A stretch of DNA of 64,000 bases from an uncultured bacterium (GTDB lineage Bacteria > Verrucomicrobiota > Verrucomicrobiia > Limisphaerales > UBA11358), in NCBI GenBank assembly GCA_963708305.1, contig CAVPSH010000001.1, positions 449,820-513,819 on the forward strand, written 5' to 3'. Below, in pieces: positions 4,758-50,213 of the stretch (the stretch's first letter is position 1; each line of letters starts with the position of its first letter). The translations under genes were made by a program, and so were the position numbers. The notes under the pieces were generated by a model. That model did no database searches. It saw nothing but the letters and a program-made list of their open reading frames with translations, and was not told where the DNA came from.

Positions 4758-4827
4758 GGAGCGCCGGTCTCCGACCCGGCGGTTTGGAAAATCAGCCCCT
4801 TCGAGCCGGGTCGGAGACCGGCGCCCC
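4758..4827. repeat. long hairpin repeat with GGAGCGC termini (family B); likely also a terminator for the 4837-5391 gene
   Basis: GGAGCGCCGGTCTCCGACCCGG, a 26-nt loop, then CCGGGTCGGAGACCGGCGCCCC: a 22-bp stem with one mismatch. Confidence 0.7.
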
Positions 4828-5949: not shown

Positions 5950-6576
5950 TCATTCCATTTCGCGCGGCGGCAGAATGCGTTTCTCAATATCCGGCTTGCG
6001 CACAACAAAGTAATGTTCCCAAAACCACGGCCAGTAACCGGGTTCGAATGGATTCGCCCGCGGATAGCCAGGGATCACCGCGCCGAGAAACGGCCAGTTC
6101 TCCGGTGATTTGACCAAGCCACCTTTGAATGGATTGAGCATGACATAATCCGCGCACGCGACGCTGAATGCGTGTCGTTGCCGTTCTTCGGCGGTGAGCA
6201 CATGGTCATGCGCCTGATGTTGGAATTTCGCCGGCTTGAGAAACGAACCGATTTGAGCGCGAAGAAACTTGATACCGTTGCGCTGGTCGGTGTCGCGATG
6301 GAGCCCCATCCAAACCAGGTGAATGTGGTCGGGCATAAGGCAATAAGCCGGACAAAGCAATCCTTCACGTGCCGCGGTATGAAGCATGATTTCCCGAACA
6401 GTGGCGTGGAAACGATCGGTCAGCCGGCCTTGCTGACGATGGGAAACCGGCATGGTCCAGAACACAACAGCGTCGCCCTGGTAGAATTCGCGCTTCAGCC
6501 TCGGCAGGTAATGAGAAAAATCTGACCGCGGTTTTCGTTCGGAAACGATGGGAGCATCGAAGGGTTCAAGGCTCAC
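5950..6576 (-). CDS. REP-associated tyrosine transposase (RAYT, IS200-like Y1 transposase)
   Basis: 208 aa with a GTG start. It has the HUH motif in CLMPDHIHLVW and the catalytic Tyr region CADYVMLNPFKGGLV, and is flanked by REP hairpins. Confidence 0.8.
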   Translation of the reverse strand: MSLEPFDAPIVSERKPRSDFSHYLPRLKREFYQGDAVVFWTMPVSHRQQGRLTDRFHATVREIMLHTAAREGLLCPAYCLMPDHIHLVWMGLHRDTDQRNGIKFLRAQIGSFLKPAKFQHQAHDHVLTAEERQRHAFSVACADYVMLNPFKGGLVKSPENWPFLGAVIPGYPRANPFEPGYWPWFWEHYFVVRKPDIEKRILPPREME

Positions 6577-6588
6577 GACGGGATTTTG

Positions 6589-6613
6589 GCGCGAACTGAC
6601 GTTCGCGGCTACA
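6589..6613. repeat. single REP hairpin (family A)
   Basis: GCGCGAACTGACGTTCGCGGCTACA resembles the second half of the REPIN doublets. Confidence 0.6.
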
Positions 6614-6620
6614 CTTTTTT

Positions 6621-6709
6621 GTAGCCGCCGACGTTAGTCGGCGCTGACTTCCCGTTTTGAAAAATCCCCGCCCAAATGATTTTAGCGCGGACTGACGTCC
6701 ATGGCTACA
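6621..6709. repeat. REPIN doublet (family A), right of RAYT; supplies the miaB stop codon
   Basis: GTAGCCGCCGACgttaGTCGGCGCTGA ... TAGCGCGGACtgacGTCCATGGCTACA. The miaB TAG (6707-6705) lies inside the terminal GCTACA. Confidence 0.8.
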
Positions 6710-8162
6710 GGTTCACAATCGCCGGGTCGCCGTAAAGAGTGAAGGAGCCGGCGCGGATGATTTTTACGTCCATGAGCCGGCCGCGATGCCGTTCCGAGCC
6801 GTCAAATACCACAATCCGGTTACAACGCGTTCGACCGGTCATTCGCGCCGGGTTTTTCTTGCTCGGCCCTTCCACCAGAATCTGCATCCGCCGCCCGATC
6901 AATGCGCTGTACTTGCGTTTGGCGATTTCGTTGATGACTTCCAACAGGCGCTGGTTGCGTTCCTCGCGAATTTCTTGCGGTACCTGGTCCGGCATTCCGG
7001 CGGCGGGCGTATCGCGGCGCTGCGAGTATTTAAAAATGTACGCCTGGTCAAATTCCACCTCGCGCGCGAGCGACAACGTCTCCTCGAAATCCTTCCCGGT
7101 TTCGCCCGGAAAGCCGACGATGAAGTCGGTACTGACGCCGATTTGAGGTTTGGCAGCACGCAGTTTTTCGATGATGCCAAGGTAACGTTCGCGCGTGTAG
7201 CCGCGGTGCATCAGTTTCAGCACGCGATTGCTGCCGCTCTGGACAGGCAGATGCGCGCTCTCGACGAGTTTCGGCATCCGCGCGTAAGCTTCAATCAAGT
7301 CATCGCCGTAACCCTTTGGATGCGGCGAGGTGAACCGGATGCGTTCCAGTCCCTCGATTTCGTGAACGGCTTCAAGGAGCTGAACAAACGGAGATTTCCT
7401 GGTCGAGGGTCGAGGGTCGAGGGTCGAGGGTTGGAAATTGTTTGGCTCTCGACTCTCGACTCTCGACTCTCGACTGCTTTGGCTGTGTTTTCCGTAACTC
7501 GTCACAATCTGGCCGAGCAGGGTGATTTCCTTCACACCCTGCGCCACCAACTGTCGGCATTCGGCCACAATGTCGGAAATGCCGCGGCTGCGCTCCTCGC
7601 CGCGCGTATAAGGCACAATGCAAAACGTGCAGTATTGATTGCAGCCCTGCATGATGCTGACAAACGCAGTGACCGGTAGCGGCGGTCTATGACCGTCGCC
7701 ATTTCCACCGCCATTTTTCGCACCGTTTCCGTAAAGCAGATGCTCGCGAATGGTCGCTTCGCTCCCCTGCTCTTCCGCCACATCCACGATTTTTTCCGCC
7801 CTCCCGGCGATGATTTCGTCGAGACAATCCGCCGCGCGATGAAATTTCTGCGTGCCAAGAACCAAATCCACGTCTGGCAACAGGTCAATCAATTCCTGTC
7901 CCCGGCTTTGGGCCATGCACCCCATGAACCCGAGGACGACATGGGGACGGCTGCGGCGGATGTCCGCGGCGAGGTTTTCCATTTTCCGGAGCGCCTTTTG
8001 TTCCGCGAGATCGCGCACGCTGCACGTGTTGAGCAGGATCACATCCGCCGCGGTTTCAGACGGCGCGAGCGTGTAGCCCTTGGCCACGAGTTGTGCGGCG
8101 ACGGCTTCGCTGTCGCGCTCATTCATCTGGCAACCGTAGGTTTTGATATAGACGCTCGGCAT
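6705..8162 (-). CDS. miaB: tRNA-i6A37 methylthiotransferase MiaB
   Basis: MPSVYIKTYGCQMNERDSE, the radical-SAM motif CNQYCTFCIVPYTRG, then RIRFTSPHP and a TRAM-like C-terminus. The start is set at 8162 because the longer ORF extension runs through a REP hairpin. Confidence 0.9.
   Translation of the reverse strand: MPSVYIKTYGCQMNERDSEAVAAQLVAKGYTLAPSETAADVILLNTCSVRDLAEQKALRKMENLAADIRRSRPHVVLGFMGCMAQSRGQELIDLLPDVDLVLGTQKFHRAADCLDEIIAGRAEKIVDVAEEQGSEATIREHLLYGNGAKNGGGNGDGHRPPLPVTAFVSIMQGCNQYCTFCIVPYTRGEERSRGISDIVAECRQLVAQGVKEITLLGQIVTSYGKHSQSSRESRVESREPNNFQPSTLDPRPSTRKSPFVQLLEAVHEIEGLERIRFTSPHPKGYGDDLIEAYARMPKLVESAHLPVQSGSNRVLKLMHRGYTRERYLGIIEKLRAAKPQIGVSTDFIVGFPGETGKDFEETLSLAREVEFDQAYIFKYSQRRDTPAAGMPDQVPQEIREERNQRLLEVINEIAKRKYSALIGRRMQILVEGPSKKNPARMTGRTRCNRIVVFDGSERHRGRLMDVKIIRAGSFTLYGDPAIVNL
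7401..7475. repeat. 75-bp heptad-repeat palindrome inside the miaB coding sequence
   Basis: (GGTCGAG)x4, a 15-nt loop, then (CTCTCGA)x4. It translates in frame as SRESRVESREPNNFQPSTLDPRPST. Confidence 0.9.
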
Positions 8163-8230: not shown

Positions 8231-8297
8231 GGGAGCGCCGGCATCTTGCCGGCGAGTTCCACTGTCTGAGACACACCGGCAAGATGTCGGCGCTCCC
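8231..8297. repeat. long hairpin repeat with GGAGCGC termini (family B)
   Basis: GGGAGCGCCGGCATCTTGCCGG, a loop, then CCGGCAAGATGTCGGCGCTCCC: a 22-bp stem with one mismatch. It lies upstream of miaB. Confidence 0.7.
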
Positions 8298-8830: not shown

Positions 8831-10924
8831 CTAGTGCGTTTCCGCCGCGGCTTTCCGTTTTTTGGCTTCCTCAATCACTTTCTCCGTCGCCTCGCGCGGC
8901 ATTTCTTCGTAGTGGCTGAATTCCTCAGTGTGAACGCCGCGCCCGCCGGTCAGTGACCGCAGCGTGCTCGAATAATGGTAAAGCTCCTGGGTCGGCACGC
9001 TCGCCTTGATGAGCTGAAACGCGCCGTCGGTATCCATGCCGATGATTTTGCCGCGCCGCGATGACAGGTCGCCCATTACCTTGCCCATGCAATCCTCGGG
9101 GATGCGGATTTCGACGGTTTCAATCGGTTCCAGCAAAACCGGCCTGGCCACCATGAACGCCTCCTTGAAGGCAAAATAACCGGCGATTTGAAACGCGATG
9201 TCCTTCGAGTCCACCGGGTGCATCTTGCCGTCGTAAAAATCGATCTTCACGTCGGTCACGCGGTAGCCGGCGAGGATGCCTTCGGTGCAGGCCTGATGCA
9301 CGCCCTTCTCCACGGACGGCACGAATACGCGGTCCACGTTCTGGCCGACGAGCGATTGGGTGAACTCGACGCCGGTGTCGCGCGGCTTCGGTTCGATGCG
9401 CATCCAGACCTCGGCGAACTGGCCCGCGCCACCGGTCTGTTTCTTGTGCCGGTATTTGGAATCGCCCTTGCCCTTGATGGTTTCGCGGTATTTCACGCGC
9501 GGCTCGCCCAGTTCGACATGCACGTTGTGCCGGCGGCGCAAGCGGTCGGCGACCACTTCCAGATGCAATTCGCCCTGCGCGGAAATGATGGTCTGGTGCA
9601 ATTCCGAGTCCACGACATAAAGAAAGGTCGGGTCTTCATGGTGCAACGCCGCCAGTCCGGACGCGACTTTATCTTCCTCGCCCTTCACCTTGGTCACGAG
9701 CGCGGCGTGGATATTCGGCTTGGGATAAACCACCTTCGGCAGGGTCACCGGATGCTTGGCGTTGCAGAGCGTGTTGCCGGTGTGCGTGTCCTTGAGCTTC
9801 ACCACCGCGCCGATGTCGCCGGGGCCGAGCGTGGGAACGGCCTCGCGGGTCTGGCCGTTGAGCAGATAAATCTGCCCGATGCGTTCGCTGATCTTGCGGT
9901 CGCTGTTGAACAAATCCGTGCCGGTGGAAATCGAGCCGGAATAGACGCGGAAGAACGACAGTTCGCCAAAATGCGCCTCGGCCATCGTTTTGAAGATGTA
10001 AACCACCGGCTCGCCGCCTTCGAGCGCCACTTCGATGTCCTTGCCGTTGCCGTCCATGGCCTTGACCTTCTTGCGGTCCACCGGCGACGAACCGTATTTG
10101 GCGATGAAATCCATCAGCCGCGCCACGCCGATGTTGTTTTCCGCCGAGACGGCAGAACAGCGGGATGAACAATTCCTTCTGCACCGCCGCGTGGATGCCG
10201 GCGCGGAATTCCTCCTCGGAAAGACTGCCCTGCTCGAAAAACTTGTTCATCAGCTCGTCATCGGACTCGGCGATGTGTTCGATGAGCTGGCCGTGCAATT
10301 CCTTGACCTGGGCCTCCCATTCGCCGGTGGCCGGTTCTTCCGTGATATTTGCCGCAGCCGTCCGTCGCGTAGGTGACGATTTCATTGCGCAGCACGTCCA
10401 GCACCTTGTTGAAACCCGGGCCGGCGTTGATCGGCACCGCCAACGGAAACACGTGCCGGCCAAAATGCTCCTGCAATTGCCTCACCACGGCGTCAAAGTC
10501 CACGTTCTCCTTGTCCACGGCATTGACCACGATCATTTTCGGAATGCCGTAGCCGGTCGCGTAATTCCAGACGCGGTCCGTGCCGACGCCGAGGCCGTGA
10601 TGGGCGTGGACGACCACCAGCGCGAAATCGCCGACGCGCAACGCGCCCAGACCTTCGCTGATGAAATCGAGGTAGCCGGGCGTGTCGATGATGTTGAACT
10701 TCTTGCCCGGCCATTCCGTGTGCAACAGGGACGCCGAGACGGAAATCTGCCGGTTTTTTTCGCTGACGTGATAATCCGAGACGGTGGAGCCGTCGGCGAT
10801 GCGGCCCATGCGGTTGATGACGCCGCCGCACAGCGAGCATCGCCTCGCTGAGCATCGTCTTGCCCGACGAAGCGTGGCCGACGACGGCAAAGTTCCGGAT
10901 GTCTGCTGGTTGATAGGTTTTCAT
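8831..10924 (-). pseudogene. elongation factor G paralogue (EF-G-like GTPase), three frameshifts as assembled
   Basis: The N-terminus is MKTYQPADIRNFAVVGHASSGKTMLSEAMLA, followed by NIIDTPGYLDF and VNAVDKE. The C-terminal 431-aa ORF carries EF-G domains II-V. Frame changes lie near 10835, 10357 and 10150. Confidence 0.85.
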
Positions 10925-15032: not shown

Positions 15033-15112
15033 CTCAATTTTGAGTTTTTAGTTTTGAATTCAATTTGCCGCAACCCACAACTTAAAATTCAAAACTCAAC
15101 CCTCAAAACTCC
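15033..15112. repeat. heptad-type imperfect palindrome in the typA 5' leader
   Basis: TTTTGAGTTTTTAGTTTTGAATT pairs with AATTCAAAACTCAACCCTCAAAACTC. Both arms are built from 7-nt units (GAGTTTT-like). Confidence 0.6.
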
Positions 15113-20526: not shown

Positions 20527-22674
20527 TCACTGGACAAGCCGCTCACGATAGGGCTGGTGGGCTTTGAAAAGTTGCAGCAACTCCTGGCTCTGGAGCGCCA
20601 GCGCTTGTTGTCCAAGCGCCAGCGCCAATTCGCGGGCTTTTCCCGATGCCGCCACCGCATCTTCAAATCGTCCCGCCTCAGCGTAAGCGGCGGCCAGGGT
20701 ACAAATCAATTGCGGATTCCCGTAATCGGTCAATTCACAAGCCCGTTCAGCCAATGGGACGGCCTGCTGGCCATTGCGAACATGCGGCTGGGGACACGTC
20801 GCCAAATGCCATGCCAGGTTGTTCAAAAAGGATGGATTGTTTGGTTCCAGCTTGATGGCGGCTTGATAGTGCGCGATGGCCTGTTCGAATTGTCCCCGGC
20901 GGAACAAGGCGTTGCCGAGGTTGTTGTAGAGGTTCGGGTTGTGGGGACTGATTTGCAGGGCCTTTTGGTACTGGGCAATCGCCTCGTCCACTTTGTCTTC
21001 CTGGAGCAGTACGTTGCCGAGGTTGCCGTGGGCCTCCACGGAGTCAGGATTGATTTGCAGAACTTTTTGGAATTGGGCCACCGCTTCGTCCACTTTGCCT
21101 TCCTGGAGCAGTGCGCTGCCGAGGTTGTTGCGGGCCTCCGCGTAGTCAGGATTGACTTGCAGCGCCTTTTGGAAATACGGAATCGCCTCACCCACCTTGC
21201 CCCAATGGAGCAGTACATTGCCGACGTTATTCCAGGTGGGCGGGTCTTTGGGATTGATTTGCAGGGCCTTTTGAAATTGGGCCATCGCGTCGTCCACTTT
21301 GCCTTTTTGGGTCAGTATAAAACCGAGGTTGTTGCAGGCCATCCAACAGTCCGGATTCCTGGCCAGGGTGGCGCGCCAGAGTGTTTCGCCGTCCGCATAC
21401 ATGCCACATTGATACCACGTCAATCCGCCCAGAATTAACAGCAGCATTTCGCAAAATACCAGCTCCCCGAGTCGCTCCTTGCTCCTCAAATGGCGGAATA
21501 ATTTGTCAATTCCTGCCACAGCCAACGTGAGCGGACCGATCATGGCCAGGTACTGAAAATGATCGGCCACGAACGAAAAGCGGAACGGATAGACATTGAA
21601 AAATCCGAGCGCCGGGAACAAGGTTCCAACGAAAAAAAGCCATGCTGCTAGCGGTCCGCGGTTCCGGCGCGATAGCAGCCACAACCCCAGCGTGACCAAC
21701 AGTGCCATCGCCGGGAAGAGATATTGCCACCCTATCACCTGGCTGACATGCCAGCGAGGGTACATAAAAATCAAGTCCACCGGCCAGATCAGTTTGCCCA
21801 GGTAGAACCAAATAACGCGTCCGGCAATGAGTGTCCGCTCGATGAAGGAAAAATTATATTCTGAACCGCTGGCGCCAACGAATGCCCACTCTATCCACGC
21901 GGTGCACAAGCCGGCACCCACCCCCGCCACAAAGAACGGAATCAAGGGCAACACATCCTGTTTCCAGGACAATCTTCCACGTTGCCACCAGAAAACCAAC
22001 AACAACGCCGCCGGCAAGGTCGCAATGACGGTCTTGGACAGTAATCCCAACAAGAACATCCCCAAAGCGAAGAAGTAAGGCCTCCAGTTTCTGTTCCGGT
22101 CGAATCTCAAGTAAAGCAATGCTGCGCTTAGATAAAACGCCCCGGACAAGACGTTCTTGATTTCCGAGACCCATGCCACCGACTCCACGCAGACGGGATA
22201 CAGGGCAAAAATGGCCGCCGCCAGCCAGGCACCTGGTACATCCAGCCGGCGCAGAATAGTCCATAGCAGAATGGCATTTAGCGCTTGCAGCAGGACGTTG
22301 GTTAAATGGTAGCCCAGCGGATTCAGTTGCCAAAGGTGATATTCCACCCAGAAACCGGTGAACGCCATCGGGTAGTATTGCGGGGTGGCGCCTGGCACAA
22401 ACCAGATTTGCCAAAGACCTTTCAGAGAGTGCAACGTCAGGTTGCCAGTCACGTAATGATCATCGTCCCAAATGAACCCCGCGTGCCAAATTGGCTGGTA
22501 AGCGAGAATTGTGGCAACTACCAGAAAGAGGCCAAACAGCCACCACCGGTGCGGCGAAGAAGTTAGAAAATCAACAACCTTGTCCGGTCCGTGGCCTCGT
22601 GGAGCGGCCACCTTGGCACCGGCCAGGGTCGAAACGCTTCGCTGGTTCGATTTGGAATCCGGCGCGAATTTCAT
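20527..22674 (-). CDS. polytopic membrane protein with C-terminal TPR repeats (TMTC/PMT-like glycosyltransferase candidate)
   Basis: About 10 TM segments are followed by 7-8 TPR units (AIAHYQAAIKLEPNN and similar). The start is set at MKFAPDSK. Confidence 0.6.
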   Translation of the reverse strand: MKFAPDSKSNQRSVSTLAGAKVAAPRGHGPDKVVDFLTSSPHRWWLFGLFLVVATILAYQPIWHAGFIWDDDHYVTGNLTLHSLKGLWQIWFVPGATPQYYPMAFTGFWVEYHLWQLNPLGYHLTNVLLQALNAILLWTILRRLDVPGAWLAAAIFALYPVCVESVAWVSEIKNVLSGAFYLSAALLYLRFDRNRNWRPYFFALGMFLLGLLSKTVIATLPAALLLVFWWQRGRLSWKQDVLPLIPFFVAGVGAGLCTAWIEWAFVGASGSEYNFSFIERTLIAGRVIWFYLGKLIWPVDLIFMYPRWHVSQVIGWQYLFPAMALLVTLGLWLLSRRNRGPLAAWLFFVGTLFPALGFFNVYPFRFSFVADHFQYLAMIGPLTLAVAGIDKLFRHLRSKERLGELVFCEMLLLILGGLTWYQCGMYADGETLWRATLARNPDCWMACNNLGFILTQKGKVDDAMAQFQKALQINPKDPPTWNNVGNVLLHWGKVGEAIPYFQKALQVNPDYAEARNNLGSALLQEGKVDEAVAQFQKVLQINPDSVEAHGNLGNVLLQEDKVDEAIAQYQKALQISPHNPNLYNNLGNALFRRGQFEQAIAHYQAAIKLEPNNPSFLNNLAWHLATCPQPHVRNGQQAVPLAERACELTDYGNPQLICTLAAAYAEAGRFEDAVAASGKARELALALGQQALALQSQELLQLFKAHQPYRERLVQ

Positions 22675-22876
22675 CCCGACCAGATTAAACAAACTCGGGA
22701 ATCGGCTCAAGCTGGCTTGCTGAGAAGATAGAGTCCAAGGACGCCCGGAACCATGCGCAGCGAAAGCCCGTCCGCTATGTCGCCTGCGCTCGGCGGAATG
22801 AAGTCGAAACGTGAAGACGCAAAAAAAGAACCCCGGCAAAAGCCGGGGTCCTTATGAGAATTAAAGGATTTTTCTG

Positions 22877-31698: not shown

Positions 31699-33153
31699 AT
31701 GCAACCATTCGATTATGACGTGGCGATTCTGGGCGGCGGCAGTGCCGGCTATGCGGCAGCCCGTACCGCGGCCAGCGCGGGTTTGAAAACCGTCGTCGTC
31801 GAGGGTGGCGAGAAGGTCGGCGGATTGTGCATCCTGCGCGGTTGCATGCCCACCAAGGCCTTGCTCTACGCCGCGGAAGTGATGCATCTGGCCAGCCACC
31901 CCGAACCGTGGGGCATTCGCGCCGGAAGGGTCGGCTTCGATCTCAAGAAGGTGATGGCGCAAAAAAACAGGCTGATCAAGGATTTTGCCGATCATCGCGT
32001 GAAGCAGCTCAATGCCGGAAAGTTCGAATTCATCCGGGCCAACGCGCGATTTGTGGATGCGCACACAGTGGAATTGAATTCTCTTTGTAGCAGCGGACGT
32101 AAGTCCGCTCATTCTTCAAAATTGGAAGTTGAACAGAGCCGACTGACGTCGGCTGCTACACTCCGATCAAAAAACTTCATCATCGCCACCGGTTCCACCA
32201 TTGCGCCGTCGCCGCTGCCGCAACTCAACGAAACAGGGTTCATCACCAGCGACGATGCGCTGGTGCTCAAGCGGCTGCCGAAGTCGCTGATTGTTCTCGG
32301 CGGCGGCGCGGTGGCGTGCGAGTTTGCCCAGTTTTTCGAGCGCTTCGGAGTCAAGGTCACGCTCATCCAGCGCAGTGAACATATTTTGAAGGAATTTGAT
32401 TCCGATGCGGCAGCGGAGATCGAAAAGGTCTTCCGGAGGGAAGGCATGAAAGTTTTTACCGGCACCAGGCTCGTGGATGCGAAGCGAAAGGGGACACTTA
32501 AGACTGTTGCGTTTGAACACGAAGGGAAAACGGTTGCTGTTTCCGCCGAGGAAATCTTGTTTGCACTCGGGCGCGTGCCCAATACGGCGTCGTTGGATCT
32601 CGAAAACGCCGGCGTGAAAACCGACAACGGGCGCATCATCACGAACGAGCTGATGCAAACCAGCGTGCCGCACATTTTCGCCGGAGGCGATTGCACCGGG
32701 CCGCATGAAATCGTTCACATTGCCGTCCAGCAGGGCGAAATTGCGGCGCACAACATCACCAATCCAAGCGCGCTGCGCCGGATGGATTATCGGTTGCTGA
32801 TTTCGGTTGTGTTCACCGAACCGCAGGTGGCCTTTGTGGGTTTGACGGAGAAGGAGGCAAAAGCGCGCGGTATTCCTTATCTGGCGGCGAGTTATCCGTT
32901 CAACGACCACGGCAAATCACTCATCATGGAGGCCAAGGACGGTTTCGTAAAATTGCTGGCGGATCCGAACTCCGGCGAAATCATCGGCGGCGCCTGTATC
33001 GGTCCGGTGGGCGGCGAACTCATTCACGAGATTGTCGCAGCGATGGCCAAACGCATGACCGTTCACGAACTGGCTGCAATGCCGCATTATCACCCGACGC
33101 TGGCGGAGATCTGGACCTATCCGGCGGAGGAACTGGCGGAGAAAGTCCTGTGA
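31699..33153 (+). CDS. class I pyridine nucleotide-disulfide oxidoreductase (Lpd/MerA-like flavoprotein) carrying a 25-aa REPIN-encoded insert
   Basis: It has the FAD motif DVAILGGGSAGYAAA, the redox disulfide GGLCILRGCMPTK, the NAD motif LIVLGGGAVACEFA, and a C-terminal HYHPTLAE. Confidence 0.85.
   Translation: MQPFDYDVAILGGGSAGYAAARTAASAGLKTVVVEGGEKVGGLCILRGCMPTKALLYAAEVMHLASHPEPWGIRAGRVGFDLKKVMAQKNRLIKDFADHRVKQLNAGKFEFIRANARFVDAHTVELNSLCSSGRKSAHSSKLEVEQSRLTSAATLRSKNFIIATGSTIAPSPLPQLNETGFITSDDALVLKRLPKSLIVLGGGAVACEFAQFFERFGVKVTLIQRSEHILKEFDSDAAAEIEKVFRREGMKVFTGTRLVDAKRKGTLKTVAFEHEGKTVAVSAEEILFALGRVPNTASLDLENAGVKTDNGRIITNELMQTSVPHIFAGGDCTGPHEIVHIAVQQGEIAAHNITNPSALRRMDYRLLISVVFTEPQVAFVGLTEKEAKARGIPYLAASYPFNDHGKSLIMEAKDGFVKLLADPNSGEIIGGACIGPVGGELIHEIVAAMAKRMTVHELAAMPHYHPTLAEIWTYPAEELAEKVL
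32086..32160. repeat. REPIN doublet (family A) inside a coding sequence, in frame
   Basis: TGTAGCAGCGGACgtaaGTCCGCTC ... CAGAGCCGACtgacGTCGGCTGCTACA. It is 75 bp, starts on a codon boundary and translates as CSSGRKSAHSSKLEVEQSRLTSAAT. Confidence 0.9.
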
Positions 33154-35976: not shown

Positions 35977-36047
35977 GGAGCGCGGCTTTTATGCCGCTTC
36001 AGCGTCCATTGCATTGATGCGTTGAAGCGGGCTGAAGCCCGCGCTCC
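35977..36047. repeat. long imperfect hairpin with GGAGCGC termini (family B)
   Basis: GGAGCGCGGCTTTTATGCCGCTTCAGCG ... CGTTGAAGCGGGCTGAAGCCCGCGCTCC. Confidence 0.6.
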
Positions 36048-49363: not shown

Positions 49364-49394
49364 AGTTCAAAGTCCGGTGTCCACAGTCCAAAGT

Positions 49395-50213
49395 TCAAAC
49401 AGTTGTGACGGAAATCTTATTTTTTTTGGCCAGTTGTCCGCAAGTCTCCTGTTCCAGCAAGAGCGTCTTGCCGGCTTCCAGTGCGAGCACGGCCACGCCT
49501 GACGTGGCGCAGGTTTCCAGGGTTTGCGCGCCGATACAGGGGATGTCAAACCGCATGTCGTGATTGAGTTTGGCGACCTTGACGGCCACCGCGCCGCCGT
49601 CCTTGCCCGCCAGTTTGCCGCCCCGCGCGAGGCATTGGTCCGTGCCTTCAAAACCCTCGACGGCAAGCACCCCGCCGCTCTTGACCACCACCGTCTGGCC
49701 GATTTCGAGCCGCGACGTTTCCCTGGCGATGCGAAAACCAAAGTCCACGTCGGCTTTTTGTCCGGCGGAAAGCTTCGGGCCAAGTTGAAAACCGGCCTGC
49801 GGCATGAGCGGTTTGAGCCACGGCGTGGCTTCAATCAGTTCCACGCCGTCCTTCTTCAATTCATCCGCAATGGCGCCGAAAATCGTGTGTGCGTTCTTTT
49901 GCTTCAGACGCAACAACAGTCCCATCGCCCGCAAATCGGGCCGCACCTCATAAAGATTTTTTGGCGTAATCTGGCCGACCATGACGCATTGCTGGATGCC
50001 GCGGCCGGTGAAGGCGGCAATCATTTTGGAAAGCTGGCCAACTTTGAGCCAGACAACTTCGTCCACGAGTTGGGCAAGCGCCGTGTCCGTCTCATTTTCA
50101 AACGCAACGGCGACGAGGCGTTGGACGCCGGCGGCACGCGCCTGCCGGGCAAATTCCAGCGGCAACGAGCGATTGCCAGCAATCAAGCCGAGGGATGCGG
50201 GCGCGGCGTTCAT
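49395..50213 (-). CDS. lpxI: UDP-2,3-diacylglucosamine pyrophosphatase LpxI (DUF1009)
   Basis: LGLIAGNRSLPLEFARQAR...QITP...IGQTVVVKSGGVLAVEGFEGTD..L.RGG...GAVAVKVAKLNHDMRFDIPCIG. The start is set at MNAAPASLG. Confidence 0.75.
   Translation of the reverse strand: MNAAPASLGLIAGNRSLPLEFARQARAAGVQRLVAVAFENETDTALAQLVDEVVWLKVGQLSKMIAAFTGRGIQQCVMVGQITPKNLYEVRPDLRAMGLLLRLKQKNAHTIFGAIADELKKDGVELIEATPWLKPLMPQAGFQLGPKLSAGQKADVDFGFRIARETSRLEIGQTVVVKSGGVLAVEGFEGTDQCLARGGKLAGKDGGAVAVKVAKLNHDMRFDIPCIGAQTLETCATSGVAVLALEAGKTLLLEQETCGQLAKKNKISVTTV

Follow-up and report, generated by a model that had tools for sequence, protein, structure and literature searches.

A four-plus-four heptad hairpin in frame in miaB of a Limisphaerales bacterium, a probable passenger in a protein loop that holds at least eight unrelated inserts among related bacteria

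A 64,000-nucleotide stretch of DNA from an uncultured Limisphaerales bacterium (Verrucomicrobiota; GenBank assembly GCA_963708305.1, contig CAVPSH010000001.1, positions 449,820 to 513,819), hereafter the window, carries on its minus strand the gene miaB, and within that coding sequence lies an in-frame palindrome of 75 nt built from heptanucleotide repeats. The question this locus raises is what such a structure is doing inside an intact enzyme gene. The answer we consider probable is that it belongs to a dispersed class of hairpin repeats, of the general kind represented by repetitive extragenic palindromic (REP) sequences and Rickettsia palindromic elements (RPEs), and that a permissive loop of MiaB accommodates it as a passenger, no working part of the enzyme. 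Related bacteria hold at least eight unrelated inserts in the same loop, so that the site has the look of an insertion hotspot and the palindrome that of a tolerated guest.

Read along the miaB mRNA, the element consists of (TCGAGAG)4, CCAAACAATTTCCAA and (CCCTCGA)4, and is translated as SRESRVESREPNNFQPSTLDPRPST (Table 1). An earlier reading of the sequence alone had recognized the arrays as (GGTCGAG)x4 and (CTCTCGA)x4 on the plus strand, in frame in miaB, and both the arrays and the translation hold; the loop it placed between the arms is also there, spanning 17 nt between the perfect arrays rather than the 15 nt it gave. A 14-mer pattern search allowing up to two mismatches finds 7 matches where 0.47 are expected, a number reached by none of 100 shuffles, and the fold z-scores are -8.1 for the mRNA strand and -9.5 for the plus strand. 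All six reading frames are open across the element, compared with 3% of random 75-mers from the window, and there is no stop codon among the 28 codons of both arrays and their complements. Because fully open arrays are produced by 61% of all heptads, so that only the loop adds information, six-frame openness is not significant in itself; it merely enables survival in frame. Since 7 and 3 have no common factor, each arm runs through a 21-nt cycle and codes the same 7-residue periodic peptide in any frame, and a palindrome yields the same kind of peptide in either orientation. No Rfam family matched at its gathering score; below threshold there were only generic long-hairpin microRNA models. An assembly artefact, one outcome by which the sequence-only reading proposed to be overturned, is rejected: the same insert type occurs in 57 of 121 sequences, from independent JGI, ENA and NCBI assemblies.

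The host protein matches the MiaB equivalog model TIGR01574 with an E-value of 4e-144, in two stretches broken at the insert. Two sets of homologues were compared with it: a close set of the 120 best homologues (77-91% identical, named Limisphaerales or Verrucomicrobiota), which with the window MiaB make an alignment of 121 sequences, and a distant set of 80 metagenome MiaB loci (52-87% identical). The segment from GQIV(T/N)xY to R(I/L)RFTSPHP is exactly 28 residues long in about 65 of the 80 distant loci (those at 52-76% identity), with the consensus G-K/R-R-D/E-I-P-x-R-D-G-K-S-A/P-F-V-Q-L-L..., and 50 residues long in the window. By sequence comparison the 28-residue linker is the ancestral state, and the seven-residue loop DIPxRDG has become 29 residues in the window MiaB. 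Aligned to the solved Bacteroides uniformis MiaB (7MJV), the insert maps between chain residues 221 and 225, which join the strand LLGQNVNSY to the helix FPMLLRTV in the radical-SAM domain. The supposition of the sequence-only reading, offered without an alignment, that the palindrome sits where other MiaB proteins have only a short linker is thus borne out, and its boundaries are fixed by both the orthologue and the structure alignments.

The loop appears permissive, being one of only two internal regions at which the 121-sequence alignment shows insertions or deletions. The other is the linker between the N-terminal and radical-SAM domains, where the window protein has the nine-residue segment GDGHRPPLP. 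This segment is missing from about 40% of the orthologues and is accompanied by four extra residues in some, and its codons include a 20-nt exact blastn match to the arm of a REPIN (a doublet of REP sequences) of GTAG type from locus L194. By the REP-arm match and the indel polymorphism, miaB has in its reading frame the remnant of another repeat.

Among the 121 aligned sequences, at least eight unrelated insert families (T1 to T8 in Table 1) occupy the one loop, and those examined at the DNA level are all strong hairpins (-21 to -73 kcal/mol). Types T3 and T4 stand in tandem in four proteins, P0075, P0076, P0115 and P0116, and a distant clade, L194 and L196 (about 53% identical), independently has GTAG REPs in the same loop. 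On a neighbour-joining tree of the rest of the protein the insert types interleave. With the linker left aside, the proteins P0004, with a T1 insert, and P0041, with a T3 insert, share 99.3% identity; identity is as high as 97.5% in T1/T2 and in T2/T3 pairs, while a single type spans proteins down to 79%. The contigs bearing the miaB genes of P0004 and P0041 (L209 and L210) are about 98% identical in DNA over 2 kb, with their sole break at the linker. The two contigs do not differ at all in the 600 nt before the linker and differ by about 2% in the downstream half, and this unevenness suggests that homologous recombination had its breakpoint at the heterologous insert. Either way, alternative palindromes occupy one codon position in what looks like a single species. 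Turnover in this loop is fast, with unrelated families of palindromes arriving, piling up in tandem and disappearing.

The history of the window type itself is one of descent. Ten T1 orthologues compared as DNA have the same heptad hairpin with the same boundaries, and these shared boundaries point to one old insertion, vertically inherited. Changes have come in heptad units or have eroded one side of the stem: L201 has lost exactly 21 nt (three heptads) of one arm, the right arm of L205 has been homogenised into CTCGCCC x3 while its left arm has not changed to match, and in L202 and L206 one arm has decayed. The mRNA folds of these four stems range from -17 to -32 kcal/mol, against -43 for the window in the same orthologue comparison. 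In the closest orthologue of all (P0002, at L200, 91% identical), a 63-nt deletion has removed nearly the complete hairpin, leaving the remnant AGTCGAGAG|ACCAGG and keeping the frame. The insert is therefore dispensable. Across nine orthologous inserts no covariation was found: paired cells make up 84.0%, compared with 84.2% in shuffles, with one pair altered on both sides and eight pairs varying by breaking only, a result that speaks neither for nor against a structural role of the invariant pairs. What is conserved is sequence, especially the TCGA core, rather than pairing upheld by compensating changes.

The two strands of the element differ in how well they fold. The plus strand, antisense to miaB, folds at -61.9 kcal/mol as RNA and -28.1 as DNA with one G.T wobble per heptad, against -40.4 and -21.3 for the mRNA strand, which has an A.C mismatch in each heptad. 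This asymmetry, pointed out in the sequence-only reading, is real, and it is conserved: in 7-8 of 9 orthologues three A.C positions of the mRNA strand do not pair, and the antisense hairpin is the stronger in the window and in 9 of 10 orthologues. Thirteen gene-associated copies from other genomes were scored, one of them (L117, 561-629) included for its locus rather than as a copy shown to be genic; stability is greater for the antisense hairpin in nine of them and for the mRNA-strand hairpin in one. The mRNA strand tends to have A in its 5' arm and C in its 3' arm, and cytosine deamination of the non-template strand would not be expected to yield such a pattern. The asymmetry had been taken as a property of elements that act as single-stranded DNA, a conclusion that is not supported as it stands, since two selective explanations fit at least as well without any such activity and the mRNA strand is the weaker one in most genic copies elsewhere. 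Long, fully paired RNA within translated sequence might be selected against, through ribosome unwinding or RNase III, or the encoded residues themselves might be preferred (SRVESRE / PSTLDPR over SRVEGRG / LSTLDSR), with Glu, Ser and Pro favoured in an exposed loop at the expense of Gly and Leu. The mRNA strand may keep its A.C mismatches because a long perfect RNA duplex is costly in a coding region, and their conservation suggests that the cost is a measurable one. GC skew over the 64-kb window was too weak and inconsistent to name a lagging-strand template.

The miaB copy belongs to a wider class. A scan for TCGAGRGTCGAGRGTCGAG, with one genome taken per species, returned at least 119 TCGAGRG-array loci (L001-L119) in Verrucomicrobiota, Planctomycetota, Acidobacteriota, Gemmatimonadota, Myxococcota and Proteobacteria; all counts for the class given here are among these listed loci. 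They include isolates (Brevundimonas, Halomonas, Calidithermus, Photobacterium and Dactylosporangium), and several metagenome-assembled genomes give more than one copy, on different contigs. An opposite-sense second arm lies no more than 160 nt away in 39 loci. The common architecture is (TCGAGRG)~4, loop, (CYCTCGA)~4: the polarity (TCGAGRG)n ... (CYCTCGA)n holds in 41 of 44 arm pairs, and 33 of 41 hairpins have 4-5 units per arm, with 4+4 the mode (18 cases). Loops often start CCAGA or CCGGA and end TCTGG or CTGG, and the 17-nt spacer in the window looks, from its letters, like a decayed form of this CCAGA...TCTGG inner stem. The repeat is also present in 55 viral-contig stretches, with no sign of enrichment, for which no dedicated test was made. 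A protein search with a synthetic heptad peptide passed only seven short hypothetical proteins, low complexity and database size defeating the approach.

About a third of the classifiable copies are genic, long open reading frames (ORFs) spanning about 15 of the 41 hairpins. Ten of the 41 lie in frame in Pfam-confirmed ORFs, with domains on both sides or around the insert. These hosts are MutL (in its inter-domain linker), a histidine kinase (within the HATPase_c domain), UvrA, two planctomycete-type cytochrome proteins (in the PSD1/DUF1553 domain, at the same site), a radical-SAM/AMMECR1/Memo fusion protein (between the Radical_SAM and AMMECR1 matches), QueG, CarB, and two homologous TPR-containing proteins (at the same site). 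A third DUF1553-like protein (L116) and a GluQRS-like protein (L117) would be further genic hosts, judging by ORF context and sequence reading only. The encoded peptides always have the form SRVE(S/G)R(E/G) ... (P/L)STLD(P/S)R.

Some class members have features of their own. In the DUF1553-type proteins of L097 (373-3141, minus strand), L040 and L116, a heptad hairpin stands at the same site after ...TYRQ(Q/A)S, and in L097 the arms flank a conserved coding segment (GSWSLKRLHRAILLSAVYQQAS) in place of a short loop. The loops of the in-frame hairpins at L118:2202-2378 (CarB) and L047:2236-2384 hold further heptad arrays (CGAACAT-like and GACCACG), repeats nested in repeats within coding sequence. 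In 20 of 214 cases (9.3%) an ORF of 100 codons or more opens with an ATG no further than 12 nt beyond a C-rich arm, against 4.0% at random positions and 0.5% after a G-rich arm (p ~6e-4). These ATG-adjacent arrays are mostly without a Shine-Dalgarno sequence and in this resemble the TAACTGA heptamers (PMC4679880).

How could a hairpin of this size have entered miaB and been kept? Tolerance follows from its build, its heptad arms having no stop codons and coding the same peptide in any frame. Once in place, only frame-preserving changes survive, such as the loss of three heptads (21 nt) or deletion of nearly the whole hairpin. Turnover may proceed by a new element inserting beside an existing hairpin, with the older one then lost by hairpin-stimulated deletion, an order suggested by the tandem T3+T4 alleles and the deletion allele. 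Candidates for the copying machinery would be a Y1 transposase resembling the REP-associated tyrosine transposases (RAYTs), or template switching between hairpins during replication.

Several observations sit uneasily with a simple passenger. The usual hallmarks of a transposon were not found: neither a target-site duplication, nor terminal inverted repeats beyond the arms, nor an associated transposase. Measured by what defines miniature inverted-repeat transposable elements, the arms could count as inverted repeats, and the flanks just carry on the heptad phase (AG...CT); no direct duplication flanks the window copy or the class copies listed, and no parent insertion sequence was seen. The further palindromes that the sequence-only reading suggested looking for did not turn up, neither the 64 kb of the window nor some 415 kb around miaB at orthologous loci holding another TCGAGRG array, so that copy number in the source genome may be low or modest. 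The insert is 0.82 identical in nucleotides among orthologues, compared with 0.83 for the gene on average and 0.66 at third codon positions; an identity so far above that of third positions indicates that it is not drifting freely, and some force, whether selection, gene conversion or concerted evolution, must conserve it. At least eight independent arrivals in a target of about 20 nt are hard to explain by random insertion and selection, and their number makes a targeting of existing hairpins plausible. An AlphaFold2 model (43 close homologues; mean pLDDT, the predicted local distance difference test, 55) is too poor to place the insert as solvent-exposed. It renders the insert as low-confidence coil (pLDDT below 50 at residues 217-254), and the inserted peptide is hydrophilic and probably disordered.

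Four other explanations were weighed against a passenger repeat, two of them concerned with how the palindrome arose. It may have formed in place and never have been mobile, through slippage expansion of a heptad followed by a fold-back or template switch, with the arrays elsewhere being independent products. Indels in heptad units, the homogenised arm, the absence of any transposase or target duplication found, and the many different heptad units that form similar palindromes (in the fetched loci and at 15038-15111 in the window) would all suit such an origin, as would the standing of heptanucleotides, in the accounts of Mrazek 2007 given in PMC4692102 and PMC4679880, as the most over-represented long simple repeats in bacteria, possibly through slippage. 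We nevertheless think it unlikely: the ancestral loop sequence has no heptad seed, the shared boundaries of all T1 carriers point to a single event, and one unit and polarity, arms of 4-5 units and the CCAGA...TCTGG inner stem recur across unrelated genes and phyla. A REP- or REPIN-type element acting as single-stranded DNA, with the G.T-tolerant strand the active one and mobilised by a RAYT-like tyrosine transposase whose gene lies 0.8 kb off (5950-6576, minus strand, directly downstream of miaB), is the explanation towards which the sequence-only reading leaned. The plus-strand hairpin is indeed stronger both as DNA and as RNA, the adjacent gene resembles a RAYT (NCBIfam NF047646, E-value 3e-15, 56 bits, under the 80-bit cut-off) and is flanked by palindromes, and other miaB-loop inserts are GTAG-type REP doublets, a RAYT-associated class (PMC3733652). 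The palindromes on the miaB-proximal side of that gene (6573-6660 and about 6680-6712), however, are of GTAG type, and the repeat flanking it (TGTAGCCGCCGACG...) differs from the heptads. The neighbouring REPs (TGTAGCCGCC...) carry the GTAG tag, whereas the heptad element (AGCAGTCGAG...CTCGACCAGG) carries neither GTAG nor CGTC. By tblastn, moreover, a RAYT-like gene lies downstream of miaB in only L123 and L205 of 89 orthologous loci (copies 83-85% identical), and is thus absent there from most insert-bearing loci; the insert is old and vertically inherited, with no recent hop, and the strand asymmetry has the other explanations given above, with no lagging-strand template named by GC skew. 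Mobilisation by this transposase therefore seems distinctly unlikely. Local hopping from the RAYT-like gene was also considered as the cause of the hotspot and rejected, the gene standing beside miaB in those two loci only.

The remaining two explanations would give the insert work to do. As a functional cis element it might be an mRNA hairpin that governs transcript stability or makes ribosomes pause between radical-SAM subdomains, or it might act through an antisense RNA; any strong hairpin would serve, hence the different palindromes in one place. Some hairpin is present at the site in 118 of the 121 aligned close-clade sequences, the insert is conserved above synonymous sites, and its mismatch pattern is conserved. 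Against these stand the many MiaB genes, a majority, without any insert, the hairpin deletion in the closest orthologue, the decayed stems in L201, L202, L205 and L206 with no compensatory changes, the absence of an Rfam family, and the occurrence of the same repeats in many unrelated genes and intergenic regions, and we regard such a role as very improbable. An adaptive extension, in which the inserted peptide forms a new loop contacting tRNA or a partner, would be aided by the position of the loop, which follows the strand with the LLGQ motif and so lies, as we assume from the fold, near the active-site end of the barrel, and by the retention of the peptide across orthologues 79-91% identical. 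It is the DNA repeat that dictates the peptide, however, with the same SRVESRE / STLDPRP peptides in MutL, CarB, QueG and others; genes 99% identical in protein hold unrelated peptides here, and a deletion allele exists. An adaptive origin is accordingly the least credible account, and we give it hardly any weight.

Beyond the passenger reading, a more far-reaching proposal may be put forward tentatively, as one that is possible though more probably wrong than right: that coding-neutral 4+4 heptad hairpins, with varied units and in several phyla, colonise protein loops as readily as intergenic DNA, and that a hairpin-directed exchange process swaps palindromes at loops already occupied. It would account for the alternation of heptad hairpins and GTAG REP doublets at one miaB codon position, even at about 98% DNA identity. 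If true, it would mean an undescribed site- or structure-specific mechanism of insertion and replacement acting on hairpins inside genes. On the findings as a whole, in-frame selfish DNA, best known from Rickettsia, would be common in free-living soil and peat bacteria, and heptanucleotide arrays would be a low-cost route by which repeats enter proteins. For annotation, repeat-encoded loops in MiaB, MutL, UvrA, CarB and others split profile matches and inflate apparent protein diversity. The miaB loop, with its ancestral state, at least eight insert families, tandem intermediates, deletion allele and alternative alleles within an apparently single species, amounts to a natural experiment that could show how hairpin repeats come and go, a matter unsettled for REPs generally.

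Table 1. The miaB element and its host gene in the window, and the insert families that occupy the same loop among the 121 aligned MiaB sequences.
Feature	Position in window	Strand	Sequences	Encoded peptide	Description
miaB (tRNA i6A37 methylthiotransferase)	6705..8162	-			Intact ORF, cluster cysteine motifs present; Pfam UPF0004, Radical_SAM and TRAM; TIGR01574
Codons of MiaB beta-strand-to-helix linker	7389..7493	-		GKHSQSS...TRKSP	Loop DIPxRDG, ancestral by comparison, replaced by 29-residue insert
Hairpin 3' arm on miaB mRNA strand	7401..7428	-		STLDPRPST	(CTCGACC)x4; plus strand (GGTCGAG)x4; Tandem Repeats Finder 7401-7431, period 7, 4.4 copies, 100% matches
Spacer/loop	7429..7445	-		part of EPNNFQP	17 nt between perfect arrays
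Hairpin 5' arm on miaB mRNA strand	7446..7475	-		SRESRVESRE	(TCGAGAG)x4; plus strand (CTCTCGA)x4, perfect at 7446-7473; Tandem Repeats Finder period 7, 4.3 copies, 100% matches
Second in-frame repeat remnant in miaB	7676..7695			GDGHRPPLP	20-nt exact blastn match to L194 GTAG-type REPIN arm (GTAGCGGCGGTCTATGACCG)
Insert family T1 (window type)			57, including window	SSRE.KVE.RE...STLD.RPST	4+4 heptad hairpin, unit TCGAGRG
Insert family T2			14	EKRDEWRVTRD...PVTRHPS	4+4 heptad hairpin, unit GTGACNC / GNGTCAC
Insert family T3			12	GRAELPLGQDAQQRVPT	Doublet of two GTAG-tagged REPs, GGTAGGG...CCCTACC
Insert family T4			13	GGASVPASRLVSSLAPP	Strong hairpin
Insert family T5			7	SLAPRLSGER...ALSSFGEERE	Known from peptide alone
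Insert family T6			4	SSFSL...LKRELQ	Strong hairpin
Insert family T7			2	...APYQ	Known from peptide alone
Insert family T8			3	DASS...	Strong hairpin

Other repeats are scattered through the window. A Pyr_redox_2 / dihydrolipoamide-dehydrogenase-like gene (31699-33153) contains, in frame at 32086-32160, a GTAG-type REP doublet of 75 nt (TGTAGCAGCGGACGTAAGTCCGCTC ... GAGCCGACTGACGTCGGCTGCTACA) that encodes CSSGRKSAHSSKLEVEQSRLTSAAT; the same ...SRLTSAAT peptide occurs in the UvrA of L029. The sequence-only reading had remarked that this doublet and the miaB element are equal in length. They are, at 75 nt each, and we take the equality for a coincidence, since the orthologous miaB inserts differ in length. 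At 15038-15111 the spacer between divergent typA/bipA-like and BNR/sortilin-like genes is taken up by an AT-rich palindrome of heptads, (TTTTGAG-like)x3 ... (AACTCAA-like)x5, with the architecture of the miaB element and a different unit. A degenerate (AGTCCAA)x5 array, with no inverted partner, lies at 49364-49399 between the lpxI stop (49395) and the start of the next minus-strand gene (49363). A palindromic family with arms starting GGAGCGCCGG / GGGAGCGCCGGC (23-28 nt, 79-96% complementary) has copies at 4758-4827, 35977-36047 and 8231-8297, the last just upstream of the miaB start. Inside a minus-strand ORF (20527-22839), a tandem repeat with a 102-nt period (20912-21357; 4.4 copies, 69% matches) is probably a coding array of a repeat protein. 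Near miaB, beyond a small DUF465 gene, an EF-G-like gene (8831-10924, minus strand) is broken across at least three frames, for example by an extra C near 10150; at orthologous loci it is one intact gene of 696 residues, so the window copy represents either a pseudogene or indel errors in assembly.

It remains to set the element beside systems already described. Neither a literal-sequence nor a keyword search of the literature returned a relevant paper with the repeat, or a description of heptad hairpins in Planctomycetes or Verrucomicrobia, of hairpin arms made of heptad arrays constant in size, of such hairpins often lying in frame, or of palindrome turnover at one protein loop. Among cyanobacteria, small dispersed repeats of Nostoc are reportedly nested in tandem heptameric repeats, in work by Elhai et al. 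that appeared in Genome Research in 2008; these tiny hairpin-associated repeats are said to insert into one another and into heptamer arrays, with turnover at fixed sites. That system has different sequences and is not known to have been described in terms of in-frame protein inserts.

Bacterial heptanucleotide repeats include the cyanobacterial short tandemly repeated repetitive (STRR) sequences and GGGAATC of Xanthomonas (PMC4692102) and TAACTGA of Beggiatoaceae and cyanobacteria (PMC4679880). Such arrays form occasional inverted pairs (PMC4692102) and frequently lie right against start codons that lack a Shine-Dalgarno sequence (PMC4679880). Shared with our class are the tandem 7-nt unit, the change of length in 7-nt steps and, for the intergenic copies, adjacency to start codons. 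Those repeats are described as intergenic direct arrays, whereas here two arrays of about 4 + 4 units form one hairpin, and many copies, that in miaB among them, lie within genes and are translated.

REPINs are almost entirely extragenic, and the one RAYT to which they are tied has the same REP on its flanks (Bertels and Rainey 2011, PMC3116915). The heptad element is likewise a short hairpin doublet, long-lived and vertically inherited at its locus, with a RAYT-like gene beside miaB here; it differs in being intragenic and in that the RAYT-like gene is not flanked by heptads, and 64 kb of the source genome hold one copy of the TCGAGRG hairpin. REPs with GTAG or CGTC tags do occur wholly within ORFs in several species, often in DNA-repair genes such as uvrA and, among others, in uvrA genes of the verrucomicrobium Opitutus terrae (Di Nocera et al. 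2013, PMC3733652), and these are of the same type as the T3 inserts, those of L194 and the doublet at 32086-32160. Such REPs are imperfect palindromes of 20-40 bp with a tag, whereas the heptad hairpin has arms of 28-nt tandem arrays, no tag and, unlike RAYT-linked REPs, no cognate RAYT found flanked by the same repeat.

The closest functional parallel is with the RPEs, palindromic repeats that lie in frame in Rickettsia housekeeping genes and are translated (Ogata 2000, 2002, as presented in PMC10969869 and PMC3733652). As far as those accounts go, RPEs are likewise found in unrelated housekeeping genes, with an extra peptide apparently compatible with function and a sizeable genic fraction, and the heptad class matches them in lying in frame in functional genes, with an intact miaB ORF and ten other Pfam-supported hosts. 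The same accounts portray RPEs as about 100-150 bp long, confined to Rickettsia and without tandem heptads, whereas the element here has 75 bp, 7-nt arrays and relatives in many phyla. Because both the Limisphaerales host and the heptad build set it apart from RPEs as described, we claim only a functional analogy. We know of no RPE report of rapid turnover among unrelated families in one protein loop. In-frame palindromes were thus already known, while for the fixed-size heptad-array hairpin, its frequent in-frame copies and the turnover of palindromes at one loop we found no earlier description. The heptad element stands outside REPs and REPINs as defined by tag and cognate RAYT, yet it works as REPs do and, by analogy, in the manner of RPEs.

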